This document shows positions 42,477 to 46,251 of a stretch of 51,996 nt of DNA, piece by piece; position 1 is the first letter of the stretch, and each line of letters begins with the position of its first letter. The stretch spans positions 1 to 51,996 of the forward strand of contig JBNJGY010000009.1 of the NCBI GenBank assembly GCA_051748045.1, in the 5' to 3' direction. A model generated the notes under the pieces. That model was not told the DNA's origin. It did no database searches and saw nothing but the letters and a program-made list of their open reading frames with translations. The translations under genes and the position numbers were made by a program. This DNA comes from Thermotogota bacterium (lineage in GTDB: Bacteria; Thermotogota; Thermotogae; Petrotogales; Petrotogaceae).

Positions 42477-43106
42477 ATGAGAAATTACGATAAAGAAGCA
42501 AAAATTATTATAGAAAAATTTCCTTACCCCCATGAATTCACTGACCCTTACATTGTTTTAGTATCTACAGTACTTTCGCAAAGAACAAAAGATGAAAACA
42601 CAAGAAAAGCTACAGTTAATTTATTTAATAAATACAAAAATATTAAAGAAATTTCAAATTTAAACCCAGAAGACATTTATGATTTAATTAAACCAGCAGG
42701 AATGTATAAACAAAAATCTGAAAGAATTATAAAATTATCAAAAATAATCGTGGATGAACATAACTCAAAAGTTCCAGATAATTTAGACGAGTTAGTAAAA
42801 CTCCCTGGAGTTGGTAGAAAAACCGCTAATATAGTGTTATACGTATCTTTTGATCAAAAGGCTATGGCTGTTGATACACACGTTCATAGAATAGCAAATA
42901 GACTAGGGTGGATAGATACAAAAAAGCCTGATGATACTGAATTTGAGATTATGAAAATAATATCTAAAGATTTATGGGGACCTTTAAATGGTTCCATGGT
43001 AGCTTTTGGACAACAAGTATGCAAACCAAGAAAGCCTAAATGTGAAATTTGTCCTTTAAAAAAATACTGTGATTTTTATAAAGAAAATTCACAAGAGACA
43101 GTTTAA
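42477..43106 (+). CDS. nth: Endonuclease III
   Basis: LSQRTKD, HhH LPGVGRKTAN, VDTHVHR, C-x6-C-x2-C-x5-C FeS motif. Confidence 0.96.
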   Translation: MRNYDKEAKIIIEKFPYPHEFTDPYIVLVSTVLSQRTKDENTRKATVNLFNKYKNIKEISNLNPEDIYDLIKPAGMYKQKSERIIKLSKIIVDEHNSKVPDNLDELVKLPGVGRKTANIVLYVSFDQKAMAVDTHVHRIANRLGWIDTKKPDDTEFEIMKIISKDLWGPLNGSMVAFGQQVCKPRKPKCEICPLKKYCDFYKENSQETV

Positions 43107-43131
43107 CTTTTAGTTAAACTGTCTCTTTTTT
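43093..43131 (+). terminator. Intrinsic terminator after nth
   Basis: Stem aagagacagtttaac/gttaaactgtctctt followed by a T run. Confidence 0.88.
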
Positions 43132-43132
43132 A

Positions 43133-43167
43133 TTGAAATTTTATATTTTTCATGTATAATTATACAT
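43133..43167 (+). promoter_or_regulatory. Putative polC promoter TTGAAA-N16-TATAAT with a 16-bp palindrome over the -10 box
   Basis: TTGAAA 43133-43138, TATAAT 43155-43160, ATGTATAATTATACAT 43152-43167. Confidence 0.55.
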
Positions 43168-43189
43168 AAGTATAATAGGGGTGATTTTA

Positions 43190-46180
43190 ATGAAAAAAAA
43201 TAAAATTCTTTCAGTAAAAAATGCTTTGAAATACAAACTAACAAAACAAAACATAAGTTTATACGGAAAAATCTTTCTCATTGATGATGACGAGAAAAAA
43301 AATTACACCCAAATTTTCATAACAGATAACAAAGAAGCAGTTATATTAAAAATATTTGAAAAAAATCTAGACTACAAAAAAGATGATTTCATAAAAGCTA
43401 AAGGTTTTTTTGAATTTGATAATCTTAACGGAGATTATTCTTTTTCAGTAAGCGAGCATAAAGAATATTTTAACTTCGAAAAAAAAGACGGTTCAATAGA
43501 AAAAAGAACTGAATTACACCTACATTCTAAATTTAGTGAACAAGATTCTATTGTAGACATAGAAGAACTATTAAAGACATTGAAGTATTGGGGACATACC
43601 CATGTAGCCATAACAGATCACGAATCTGTTCAAAACATACCTGAATTTTGGAATCTTTCAAAAAAATATAATATAACTCCAATTTTTGGTGCTGAAATAA
43701 CTGTTTTCGAACCATTTTTAAACGATTTCTTTCATGTAACTATACTGGCAAAAAATAAATCAGGACTTAAAAACCTCTACAAAATAATATCTCAATCACA
43801 TATGAATTTAAACGAAAAAAAACCTATAATCAATATACAAGACATAGAAAAAAATAGAAAAGATTTATACATAGGTAGCGCTTGTACTAAAAACATTTTA
43901 ATGTATTTTTATCTAAAACAAGATGAAGAAATGCTCTTGAAAAAAGTTAAGTTTTTTGACTATATAGAAATACAACCATTAGAAGCAAAAGAAGATGACA
44001 GAATAACAAAAGAAAAACTCAAAAAATTCTATCTTAGAATAACAGAAGCAGCAGAAAATGAAAATATACCTGTAATACTAACAGGAAATGTTCACTATAT
44101 ATACGAAAAAGACAAAGAAATACACAATGCCTTACAAAAAGGTATAGAAACACTTAAAAAATTTAACAAAACATACAATTCCAAAAGATATCTCCGAACA
44201 ACAGAAGAAATGATACAAGCAGGTATAGAAATATATGGGAAAAGAGGAAAAGCTAAAAAAATAGCCGTTAGAAATGTAAAAAAATTGATAGATACAATAG
44301 AAAAAATAGAACCTTTTGACAACAAACTACACGCGCCAAAAATAAAAGACGAAAACTTAAAATTAAAAGATTTGGTCTACCATCAGACAAAAAAGATATA
44401 CGGGGAAAAAATTCATTCGAAAATTAAACAAAGAATAGAAAAAGAATTATCTCCTATAATAAAAAACGGTTATGCTATTATCTTCCTACTTGCAAGAGAA
44501 ATGATTCTAAAATCTAAAGAAGATGGATATCCTGTTGGAGCAAGGGGATCAGTTGGATCTTCATTAATAGCTTTTATACTTGGAATATCAGAGGTAAACC
44601 CACTACCTCCCCACTATTATTGCAAATGTGGATACGTTGATTTCATAGATAACTTAAATATAAGTGGTTTTGATTTAGAAAGAAATAGATGCCCTAACTG
44701 TGGAAAAGATTTAAAAAGCAATGGACATAACATAAGATTTGAAATATTTATGGGATTTGATGGAAAGAAAATTCCAGATATAGACATAAATTTCTCTGGA
44801 GAATACCAAACTAAAATACACAGATATTTAGAAGAAAAATTTGGAAGAGAACACTGTTTCAAAGCCGGAACTATAAATACCATTGCAAAGAGATCAGCAC
44901 TAAAATTCTCTGAAAAATACTTAAAAAAAGAAGGGCATATAGCAAAAATATTTTATTATGCAGAAAAATTAAAAGGTGTAAAGATGACAACTGGACAACA
45001 CACAAGCGCCATGATAATTATCCCCCAAGAAAACAATATAAACGATTTTACACCATATCAATACTCAGCAAACGATAAAGAAAAGGGAATTCTAACAACA
45101 CATTTTGATTACGAAGCTTTAGAAAATGATCTATTAAAAATAGACGCTCTAGCCCACGATGCACCAACCTTTTTAAAAAAACTAAAAGATTTAACTGGAA
45201 TAGGATACGAAAAACTTCCAATGAATGACAAAGATGTTCTCGAGCTCTTTTCATCTCTAAAACCATTGAAAATAAACCTTGACGAAATAGACGTGGAAAT
45301 AGGAACTCTTGGAATACCAGAAGTATGGACACCATTTGCACATAGAATGCTATCCGAAACAAAACCAAAATCTTTCTACGATTTAGCCAGAACATCCAGC
45401 CTTTCTCACGGAACAAACATATGGTTCAACAACGCAAGAGAATTGGTACTAAAAAAACAAGTGTCTGTAAACCAAGTTGTCTCTTGTCGAGATGACATAT
45501 TATTAACCTTAGAACATTACGGAATAGAATCAAAAAAAGCCTTCAACATAATGGAAAAAGTAAGAAAAGGCAAGAAACTAACAGAAGAAGAACTAAAATT
45601 ACTTATATCAAAAAATGTTCCAAAATGGTATATTAAATCACTGATAAAAATAAAATACCTTTTCCCAAGATCTCACGCTGTTGCTTACATGTATATGGCT
45701 TATAAAATAGCCTTTTACAAACTTTACTACAGATTAGAATTCTATTCAGTCTATTTCAGTGTTAGGGCGAAAATATTTGATATAGACACTATATTCAACG
45801 AAGAGTTGATGATGAAAAAAATAGAAGAATTATCAGACGTCACCTATAAACACGACTTTGAAAATTTTTTGACCTATTCAGTGTTAAGAACGGCTTACGA
45901 AATGAAAAAACAGGGATACTATTTTCTTCCACCAGACATATACAAATCCCATATAACAGATTTTGTCATAGAGGGAAAAAACCTTAGAATCCCCCTAACA
46001 AAAATACCAAATGTAGGAATAAAAGGTGCAGTGAATATATTCAAAGAAAGAGAAAAAAAATTCATATCAATAGAAGATTTCAAAAAGAGGACAAAAATTA
46101 GCAAAAGAATAATAGAAAAACTAAAAACTAAAGATTTCTTCAAAAACCTACCAGAAAAAAGCCAAATCCCTCTTTTTTAA
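43190..46180 (+). CDS. polC: PolC-type DNA polymerase III alpha lacking the 3'-5' exonuclease and N-terminal domains
   Basis: OB fold, RTELHLHS/TDH PHP, VGARGSVGSS, EVNPLPPHY zinc finger, IPDIDINFSGEYQ, LLKIDALAH, LSHGT, C-terminal QIPLF; start ATG 43190 (alternative GTG 43181). Confidence 0.93.
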   Translation: MKKNKILSVKNALKYKLTKQNISLYGKIFLIDDDEKKNYTQIFITDNKEAVILKIFEKNLDYKKDDFIKAKGFFEFDNLNGDYSFSVSEHKEYFNFEKKDGSIEKRTELHLHSKFSEQDSIVDIEELLKTLKYWGHTHVAITDHESVQNIPEFWNLSKKYNITPIFGAEITVFEPFLNDFFHVTILAKNKSGLKNLYKIISQSHMNLNEKKPIINIQDIEKNRKDLYIGSACTKNILMYFYLKQDEEMLLKKVKFFDYIEIQPLEAKEDDRITKEKLKKFYLRITEAAENENIPVILTGNVHYIYEKDKEIHNALQKGIETLKKFNKTYNSKRYLRTTEEMIQAGIEIYGKRGKAKKIAVRNVKKLIDTIEKIEPFDNKLHAPKIKDENLKLKDLVYHQTKKIYGEKIHSKIKQRIEKELSPIIKNGYAIIFLLAREMILKSKEDGYPVGARGSVGSSLIAFILGISEVNPLPPHYYCKCGYVDFIDNLNISGFDLERNRCPNCGKDLKSNGHNIRFEIFMGFDGKKIPDIDINFSGEYQTKIHRYLEEKFGREHCFKAGTINTIAKRSALKFSEKYLKKEGHIAKIFYYAEKLKGVKMTTGQHTSAMIIIPQENNINDFTPYQYSANDKEKGILTTHFDYEALENDLLKIDALAHDAPTFLKKLKDLTGIGYEKLPMNDKDVLELFSSLKPLKINLDEIDVEIGTLGIPEVWTPFAHRMLSETKPKSFYDLARTSSLSHGTNIWFNNARELVLKKQVSVNQVVSCRDDILLTLEHYGIESKKAFNIMEKVRKGKKLTEEELKLLISKNVPKWYIKSLIKIKYLFPRSHAVAYMYMAYKIAFYKLYYRLEFYSVYFSVRAKIFDIDTIFNEELMMKKIEELSDVTYKHDFENFLTYSVLRTAYEMKKQGYYFLPPDIYKSHITDFVIEGKNLRIPLTKIPNVGIKGAVNIFKEREKKFISIEDFKKRTKISKRIIEKLKTKDFFKNLPEKSQIPLF

Positions 46181-46212: not shown

Positions 46213-46251
46213 ATAAATACCTCCAAGTATATACTTAGAGGTATTTATTTT
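46213..46251. terminator. Bidirectional terminator between polC and the ktrB-like gene
   Basis: ataaatacctc-c-aagtat/atactt-a-gaggtatttat inverted repeat. Confidence 0.8.

Follow-up and report, generated by a model that had tools for sequence, protein, structure and literature searches.

The C-family of DNA polymerases is divided into PolC, DnaE1, DnaE2 and DnaE3, of which DnaE2 alone counts as accessory and linked to damage. The exonuclease (Exo) insertion of PolC is missing from 6% of PolCs according to Timinskas and Venclovas (NAR 2014, PMC3919608), who also mention an extra copy of PolC without it in Thermotogae and enter '2xPolC + DnaE3 ... Thermotogae(1)' in their Table 1. In the same table the Exo-less PolCs of Clostridia and Negativicutes are mostly the only PolC of their genome and are paired with DnaE1. 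Here we describe polC2, a gene for an Exo-less PolC on a stretch of 51,996 nucleotides (the window) from a Thermotogota bacterium (GenBank assembly GCA_051748045.1, contig JBNJGY010000009.1, positions 1 to 51,996, forward strand). Like the copy of 2014, its product PolC2 is an Exo-less extra polymerase in a genome that also encodes a normal PolC and a DnaE of DnaE3 type. The difference lies in what is said about it: the portion of the 2014 paper available to us devotes one clause to a single genome and is silent on phylogeny, distribution, regulation and function. The architecture is thus already in print, contrary to the initial annotation of the window, which held it to be possibly undescribed, and its kind is uncharacterised. 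Literature searches on PolC without exonuclease, on a second polC and on Petrotoga found no functional study, and Exo-less PolCs go unmentioned in the sections of PMC12926913 available to us. Because the architecture has been published since 2014, the value of the present analysis is a functional hypothesis and not a new domain arrangement.

We consider it fairly probable that PolC2 is an accessory, proofreading-less polymerase which belongs to a DNA-damage-type regulon. Beyond the 2014 paper we report its occurrence in 14 genomes of four genera, its probable origin within the family, the loss of the N-terminal domain, PHP metal-site decay and an operator-like element common to several genes. 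What is most useful here can be put to the test: an Exo-less PolC paralog shares a promoter-proximal inverted repeat with uvrA, addBA and a gene of family TIGR03916 ('DNA modification/repair radical SAM').

The open reading frame of polC2 would encode 999 amino acids if started at the GTG at 43181. The likely start is the ATG at 43190, six bases after AGGGGTGA (43177-43184), giving a protein of 996 amino acids. In one relative (G070, locus L010) this ATG is replaced by ATT, and either an in-frame GTG three codons upstream or the ATT itself may serve as start. PolC2 matches the Pfam families PHP (residues 108-260), DNA_pol3_alpha (391-579), finger (659-798) and HHH_6 (912-988); RNase_T (PF00929) and the PolC N-terminal families gave zero Pfam matches in the protein, even at E<=1. 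The best NCBIfam match is PolC: model NF001688 scores 1094.2 bits and passes its cut-off of 873, with a best stretch that runs from residue 180 to 996 against profile positions 614-1444 of 1445. TIGR01405, likewise PolC, reaches 1026.5 bits, slightly under its cut-off of 1043.45, and the 'error-prone DNA polymerase' model, with a cut-off of 939, only 153 bits. Across residues 182-996 PolC2 is 43% identical to the full-length PolC of its own genome (PolC1).

In an alignment of 96 sequences PolC2 has no counterpart of PolC1 residues 1-~180 and 366-571, and the gap for the second block falls between PolC2 residues 176 and 181. Since both blocks are unmatched, we regard polC2 as an extra copy from which two modules were cleanly lost. 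The initial annotation had read both absences from the letters, and they hold: the AlphaFold model (mean predicted local distance difference test score, pLDDT, 89.9; predicted template modelling score, pTM, 0.85) begins with the oligonucleotide-binding (OB) barrel, the pair of N-terminal domains that precedes the OB domain in PolC is absent, and at the junction a short turn takes the place of the DEDDh exonuclease inserted in the PHP domain of PolC. The uninterrupted PHP read-through GAEITVFEPFLNDFFHVTILAKN lies at 43688-43756, one base longer than the end at 43755 given earlier. What remains of the PolC plan is complete, with the OB domain N-terminal to PHP, the zinc finger and three catalytic aspartates. 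The top sequence match in the PDB is chain 3f2b_A, the PolC of G. kaustophilus (PolC2 41-996 against 42-1030, E = 1e-221), on which the model superposes with template modelling (TM) scores of 0.92/0.93. A Gly/Ser stretch of 3f2b_A coincides exactly with the short turn of PolC2. From profile, alignment and model, PolC2 is predicted to retain the core of OB, PHP, palm/thumb/fingers and tandem helix-hairpin-helix, (HhH)2.

The initial annotation took polC2 for a second PolC, and the genome agrees. In our copy of the assembly (G000; 2.41 Mb, 158 contigs, 99.65% complete) a search with PF07733 found three C-family genes: a DnaE on contig C3 (frame of 806 amino acids), the full-length PolC1 on C6 (1390 amino acids from ATG, RNase_T inside) and polC2 on C9. 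The distribution was searched in 151 genomes of the phylum, 26 of the same family (f1) and 125 of other families. Fourteen genomes carry the short form, all of them in f1: 3/3 of genus g1, to which the window belongs, 2/2 of g4, 6/6 of g8 and 3/3 of g10. It was not found in the remaining 12 f1 genomes or in the 125 genomes of other families. The short frames are open over 965-1025 amino acids in 13 genomes, and one more is cut by a contig end. All 14 genomes have a second match to a full-length PolC, of 1385-1410 amino acids where listed; the frame of G088 is cut to 724 amino acids and that of G089 is not listed. The f1 matches are named Petrotoga and Marinitoga, and one short form is a 963-amino-acid protein of Petrotoga sp. 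9PW.55.5.1. We take these named relatives to be moderately thermophilic. Five genomes outside f1 with two matches were examined, and these turned out to be split genes, fragments or DnaE. One genome of another family (G127) carries, besides a full PolC, an isolated PolC fragment of 247 amino acids (C2:206480-207157, minus strand), which shares 44% identity with PolC2 residues 705-930.

The aspartates D530, D532 and D652 and the zinc-finger residues Cys478, 480, 501 and 504 are unchanged in 16/16 short-form proteins. We take D530 and D532 to be catalytic, as in PolC generally. The ratio of nonsynonymous to synonymous substitution rates (dN/dS) in g1 is 0.061-0.072 for PolC2 and 0.066 for PolC1; in g8 it is 0.11-0.15 for PolC2 and 0.07-0.08 for PolC1. 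These ratios indicate that strong purifying selection acts on polC2. The exonuclease junction is spanned with 0 differences by contigs of the probable source run. A second study provides contigs of a relative (X3), in which other letters make up about 5-13% of each piece; these extend over 43462-43792, where no inserted letters are listed. The short form is not an assembly artefact, since 14 genomes have it and the X3 contigs lack an insert; a misassembled deletion, which the initial annotation had named as a way to overturn its view, was not seen. It is very improbable that polC2 is such a deletion, or what is left of a duplicated polC in decay. Erosion of the PHP metal site and of the C-terminal motif in g4, g8 and g10 would fit decay, but frames are open in 13 genomes with one more cut at a contig end, dN/dS stays at 0.06-0.16, the catalytic residues are invariant, the promoter is conserved, and both the source-run contig and the relative show the same form across the junction. 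The early impression that the gene is not decayed is borne out by its invariant residues and its dN/dS, and on this evidence polC2 is a real and functional gene.

In two genera the paralogs diverge discordantly. The g4 pair G067/G068 (loci L017, L018, L040, L041) is 98.4% identical in PolC2 (dS 0.05) and 86.6% in PolC1 (dS 1.15). The g8 pair G081/G082 (L014, L016, L043, L044) is 99.6% identical in PolC1 (dS 0.03) and 92.4% in PolC2 (dS 0.30). Such discordance points to recombination or to interspecies transfer of one gene.

The loss of the Exo insert raises the question of where proofreading could come from. The nine metal positions of the PHP domain in PolC2 read H110 H112 D119 H144 E169 H182 C232 N300 H302 (HHDHEHCNH), the pattern of genus g1 and also of chain 3f2b_A, and the N at position 8 recurs in 20/23 Thermotogota PolC1s. 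The intact nine-residue site (HHDHEH[C/H]DH), a presumed substitute proofreader, is absent from PolC2. Under the all-or-none criterion given in the available part of PMC12926913, HHDHEHCNH counts as inactive. In g4, g8 and g10 positions 3, 4, 6 and 7 are substituted, and by these residues three polC2 genera out of four have a decayed metal site.

Proofreading by a separate DnaQ, with PolC2 as a replicase in the manner of the E. coli alpha-epsilon pair, was proposed as a second option in the initial annotation. Stand-alone RNase_T genes do exist on contigs C12 and C19, and the C12 type keeps invariant D13, E15, D101, H154 and D159, read as the DEDDh residues, and a conserved C-terminal tail. 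But its orthologs (57-95% identity) occur in 23/25 other f1 genomes whether polC2 is present or not, which makes 24/26 with the gene of G000 itself and includes 7/7 genomes of g6; the C19 type is found in just 2/26. A full-length PolC with its own exonuclease always co-occurs with PolC2, and the PHP residues are decayed in three genera. Because the stand-alone DnaQ-like gene is independent of the presence of polC2, nothing points to a dedicated trans-acting epsilon, and we judge a DnaQ-assisted replicase to be quite unlikely. The C12 gene itself (C12:33034-33597, minus strand) encodes a DEDDh exonuclease of 188 amino acids with an invariant C-terminal motif (F182, W186; consensus DFIKKWRG), and this protein shares 33-42% identity with the PolC1 exonuclease insert.

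The Exo-less PolCs of Clostridia and Negativicutes resemble PolC2 in lacking the DEDDh insert while keeping the polymerase core, the zinc finger and a C-terminal QxxLF. They differ in several respects. The Bacillota Exo-less proteins (P0040-P0105) have 1049-1258 amino acids, many with N-terminal domain families, and 24/24 of those examined retain the full PHP motif HHDHEHCDH, which the PolC2 clade does not. They also have a separate origin. A tree of 60 rows was computed by a quick IQ-TREE search under LG+C20 from 986 columns that leave out the Exo and N-terminal parts. In it the PolC2 sequences form a single clade with a support of 100 in the Shimodaira-Hasegawa-like approximate likelihood ratio test (SH-aLRT). 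They share one side of a 100-supported branch with the f1 PolC1s, and stand beside the PolC1s of g6. A FastTree of 96 rows gives the same clade, likewise apart from Bacillota, and in the trees the Bacillota Exo-less rows nest within the full-length PolCs of that phylum. Topology constraints were compared by approximately unbiased (AU) tests in IQ-TREE under LG+G4. Uniting PolC2 with the Bacillota Exo-less PolCs is rejected (log-likelihood difference 838, p = 7e-102), and so is placing PolC2 outside all Thermotogota PolCs (p = 0.017); monophyly of the f1 PolC1s to the exclusion of PolC2 is not rejected (p = 0.225). Because the branches are long, the exact sister group is unsure. The trees and tests indicate that polC2 arose within the Thermotogota PolC radiation, independently of the Exo-less PolCs of Bacillota. 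A mobile-element origin was considered and rejected: the top phage or plasmid tblastn matches have 36-39% identity, lower than Thermotogota PolCs, and we read them as host PolC genes because many of the records are chromosome-sized or annotated PolC. No mobile-element genes flank polC2 in the window.

Upstream of polC2 lies a promoter-like sequence that is identical in two genus g1 genomes and homologous in the other polC2 genera. It is followed by an inverted repeat, TATACATAAGTATA (TATAC-N4-GTATA), which we regard as a candidate operator. A perfect 16-bp palindrome (43152-43167) overlaps the repeat and is identical in two other g1 genomes despite a coding dS of 0.7-0.9. The upstream regions are alignable across all four genera (11 regions; alignment of 12 sequences), with a common layout of -35 box, TGTATAAT, 0-5 bases, TATA(C/T)AT-NN-GTAT(A) and ribosome-binding site. 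Promoter and repeat are conserved though the loci in g1, g4, g8 and g10 are non-syntenic. The exact repeat occurs 4 times in the 2.41 Mb of the own genome. It presumably matches the Gram-positive LexA box in its AC-N4-GT geometry. Of the four exact copies, one (C14:28544-28557) lies in a divergent region between a reading frame of 116 amino acids and a strain-specific TetR gene, which is followed by a radical-SAM gene. This TetR (C14:28661) was considered as the common regulator and rejected, as it has no ortholog in 25 other f1 genomes, whose search gave just two weak matches (E about 4e-6).

Similar sites were sought with a position weight matrix hand-built from 14 sites, including those of polC2 and of the repair genes. 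The polC2 site is the top match genome-wide, with 18.8 bits. A promoter-geometry filter, which asks for a -10-like box just upstream and for a ribosome-binding site and start just downstream, left sites before addB (15.5), uvrA (12.4) and a TIGR03916 gene (9.8), before the gene of a membrane protein of 161 amino acids (12.4), and a site of low complexity (11.1). The polC2 site drops from this set solely by the rule on the ribosome-binding site. A family-wide pattern, TAYAAT-N0-5-TATAYATNNGTAT, matches 25 times, in 17/26 genomes, compared with 4 times for its reversed control. Sorted by the gene that follows, the matches are polC2 (12), addB (3, in g1 only), uvrA (1), TIGR03916-like genes (2) and seven others (DsbD_TM, PNPOx, three glycosyltransferases, a transposase and one match without a gene). 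Sites scoring at least 11 stand upstream of uvrA in 6/22 genomes from five genera (g1, g7, g8, g9, g10), in a scan that probably misplaced the start in G069. TIGR03916-like genes have upstream sites of at least 9.5 in 6/18 genomes (g1, g5, g7, g9), compared with 1/18 for coding-region controls. From these sites it appears that polC2 is under common control with DNA-repair genes.

Three further observations concern the genes found in these scans. A second UvrA-like gene of the own genome (C79:1456-4311, minus strand), besides the main uvrA on C2, has a frame of 967 amino acids with 45% identity to the UvrA query. Longer UvrA-like frames (1143-1252 amino acids) are present in G066, G087, G088 and G071. 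In 3/3 genomes of g10 a second copy of promoter plus repeat stands 41 bases upstream of a glycosyltransferase-like gene (L105:367-1107, L109:366-1547), with no clear ribosome-binding site between.

A similar site at the same position before uvrA, addBA and the TIGR03916 gene suggests a single repressor and a DNA-damage-type regulon. TIGR03916 is a family that we take to be equivalent to COG4277. A repair operon of COG1573 and COG4277 with uracil-DNA glycosylase (UDG) has been reported as SOS-regulated in other phyla in the available part of PMC8565304. LexA is the obvious candidate for the repressor, because its presence and absence across genomes match those of the element. LexA was found in 19/19 f1 genomes outside g6. 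In g6 a full-length LexA is missing from 7/7 genomes, polC2 and the family pattern are found in 0/7, and the scores upstream of uvrA (six genomes) and of TIGR03916-like genes (five genomes) are at most 5.4. A more specific proposal is that PolC2 is the first damage-inducible polymerase of PolC type, in contrast to those of DnaE2 or Y-family type, that LexA is probably the repressor which acts at TATAC-N4-GTATA on polC2 as well as on uvrA, addBA and the TIGR03916 gene, and that the enzyme is active in mutagenic or damage-tolerant synthesis; this is a tentative proposal that we hold to be doubtful on balance. If it were true, the repeat would be the real SOS box of f1 and the published Petrotoga consensus would have to be revised.

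Several observations weigh against membership of PolC2 in a damage regulon. The matrix scores of polC2 and the repair genes are circular, because the same sites built the matrix, and the related genomes in the site counts are not independent. The addB site is confined to 3/25 genomes of the single genus g1, and half of the pattern matches outside polC2 precede genes without a link to DNA repair. The repeat is missing at lexA and recA: 11/11 lexA genes recovered from 13 loci have no site within 400 nt, and recA of the own genome has no element. The LexA consensus published for Petrotoga miotherma, GANTN6GANNAC (quoted in the available part of PMC3789691), is unlike the polC2 repeat, and it has no consistent match upstream of polC2 at 13 loci of other genomes. 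The active site of PolC2 shows no apparent remodelling for lesion bypass, and the C-terminal clamp motif is absent from the g4 and g8 proteins in the alignment; therefore clamp dependence may not be general. In the only RNA run that shares any sequence with the window, a salt-lake metatranscriptome (X4), a 251-base contig equals nth 42753-43003 exactly, and X4 covers nothing credible of polC2, only short spurious pieces, in contigs that cannot show absence. Finally, Y-family polymerases, rare in Thermotogota according to the parts of the literature available to us, are absent from the own genome and exceed the Pfam cut-off only in g10, which has polC2 too. They are missing from most of f1 with or without polC2. 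Because their distribution is not complementary, it does not support the idea that PolC2 stands in for missing translesion polymerases. The g10 Y-family gene has no element within 200 nt and seems to follow another gene.

Two details belong beside these points. The lexA gene (G000:C2:46262-46876, minus strand; loci L142-L160) stands directly behind a conserved upstream gene, with a gap that holds only a ribosome-binding site, in 10/11 rows; the gap is a short AT-rich spacer in G082 and G080 (g8) and about 60 bases in G085. GANTN6GANNAC as an alternative box was also searched in the window, where 2 matches (2401, 13302) compare with 3.9 expected and none is near polC2.

The missing sites at lexA and recA, and the many matches before non-repair genes, would also be expected of a housekeeping second fork or gap-filling polymerase, comparable to DnaE3 with its primer extension in Bacillus, whose repeat answers to a regulator unrelated to damage, for example to growth phase or nucleotide supply. 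The dN/dS of polC2, as low as that of the replicative PolC, the clamp motif and PHP pattern shared by the g1 protein with PolC1, and a DnaE reported as strongly reduced in the phylum (in the available part of PMC3919608) point the same way. Such a role is nevertheless unlikely in our view. Of the family, 12/26 genomes are without polC2; 4/6 promoter-positioned sites of the own genome precede DNA-repair or replication genes, the uvrA and TIGR03916 sites recur across several genera, and the other genera show decay of PHP site and clamp tail.

We return to PolC2 as an accessory polymerase under damage-type control, for which the following course may be proposed. polC2 would be a lineage-specific paralog of the replicative PolC, kept in four genera of one Thermotogota family. 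After duplication, or after transfer within the family, the copy would have lost the N-terminal domain and the DEDDh insert. It would be transcribed from its own promoter, with the TATAC-N4-GTATA repeat in the +1 region, and PolC2 may use the sliding clamp for DNA synthesis outside the main replisome, without its own proofreading. Its role would likely be repair, gap-filling or damage-tolerance synthesis, following a DnaE2-like logic. A repair-linked role had been supposed in the initial annotation, and it gains indirect support from the operator-like element shared with uvrA, addBA and TIGR03916, but not from any imuA/imuB-like partner. A proofreading-less PolC under strong selection beside the replicase suggests that the PolC branch, too, may have yielded an accessory polymerase. 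The conserved promoter element offers a concrete handle on a DNA-damage regulon in Thermotogota.

The features of the locus are collected in Table 1. The initial annotation set polC2 between two terminators and next to nth. Hairpins do flank the gene and nth does adjoin it, but this neighbourhood is kept only within the genus: the order nth-polC2-trkH is conserved only in g1, and in g4, g8 and g10 no neighbour gene of the window adjoins polC2. The wider flanks hold chemotaxis genes, cinA, a GGDEF response regulator, trkH and a two-component pair.

Table 1. Coordinates, in the window, of polC2, its parts and its surroundings
Feature	Coordinates	Strand	Basis or remark
nth (endonuclease III)	42477..43106	+	TIGR01083 at 214.4 bits (cut-off 211.7); Pfam
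Terminator-like hairpin, 16-bp stem plus T run	43093..43127	+	ends nth and separates it from polC2
Promoter-like TTGAAA-16 nt-TATAAT	43133..43160	+	11/12 matches; TG directly before the -10 box
Inverted repeat, candidate operator	43161..43174	+	between -10 box and ribosome-binding site
polC2 coding sequence	43190..46180	+	996 amino acids plus stop; in-frame GTG at 43181
OB-like beta-barrel, residues 6-92	43205..43465	+	five strands in the AlphaFold model; aligns with the start of 3f2b_A
PHP domain, residues about 100-330, uninterrupted	43487..44179	+	Pfam and alignment
Exonuclease-insert junction, residues 176-181	43715..43732	+	short turn between two strands; DEDDh insert of ~206 amino acids in other PolCs
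Zinc finger Cys478, 480, 501, 504	44621..44701	+	invariant, 96/96 aligned PolCs
Aspartates D530, D532 in PDIDIN	44777..44785	+	invariant, 96/96 rows
Third aspartate D652 (K-I-D)	45143..45145	+	alignment, invariant
C-terminal QIPLF, clamp-binding-type motif	46163..46177	+	matches PolC QxxLF
16-bp hairpin	46213..46248		past the polC2 stop, before a convergent trkH-like gene

The C-terminal tail, placed correctly by the initial annotation, is QIPLF in 3/3 g1 PolC2 proteins, and the g10 proteins end in KLKLF. Every PolC1 has QxxLF at its C-terminus. The PolC clamp motif of B. subtilis, QLSLF, is C-terminal as well, as stated in the available part of PMC12309361.

Among known systems, DnaE3 of Bacillus subtilis is, like PolC2, a second C-family polymerase which lacks an exonuclease; it binds the clamp and works beside PolC, as PolC2 is predicted to do. 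It is essential and universal in PolC-bearing bacteria, whereas polC2 occurs in only 14/26 f1 genomes, with a DnaE also present. The ImuA-ImuB-DnaE2 mutasome provides a further comparison: DnaE2 is a non-essential extra C-family polymerase without proofreading, and PolC2 possibly shares its link to a damage regulon. PolC2 differs in being of PolC type and not of DnaE type, and no imuA/imuB-like partner was seen among its neighbours in four genera. DnaE2 is nearly confined to DnaE1-only systems of large, GC-rich genomes, according to the parts of PMC3919608 and PMC12926913 available to us. In domain content and order PolC2 is the same as the engineered PolC-deltaN-deltaExo proteins of G. kaustophilus (3F2B) and S. 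aureus. PMC3656037, in the part available to us, names 3f2b_A as a deltaN-deltaExo construct and gives Sau-PolC-deltaN-deltaExo the same organisation. Such constructs polymerise fast and need the clamp for processivity, with a polymerisation rate constant (kpol) of 330 per s and a dissociation rate constant (koff) of about 150 per s for the S. aureus protein (PMC3656037). By this likeness PolC2 is plausibly an active, clamp-needing polymerase. The constructs are laboratory truncations of replicases, whereas PolC2, 37-38% identical to them, is natural and kept by selection; it would be the natural version of the deltaN-deltaExo proteins that have been used for the structure and kinetics of PolC.

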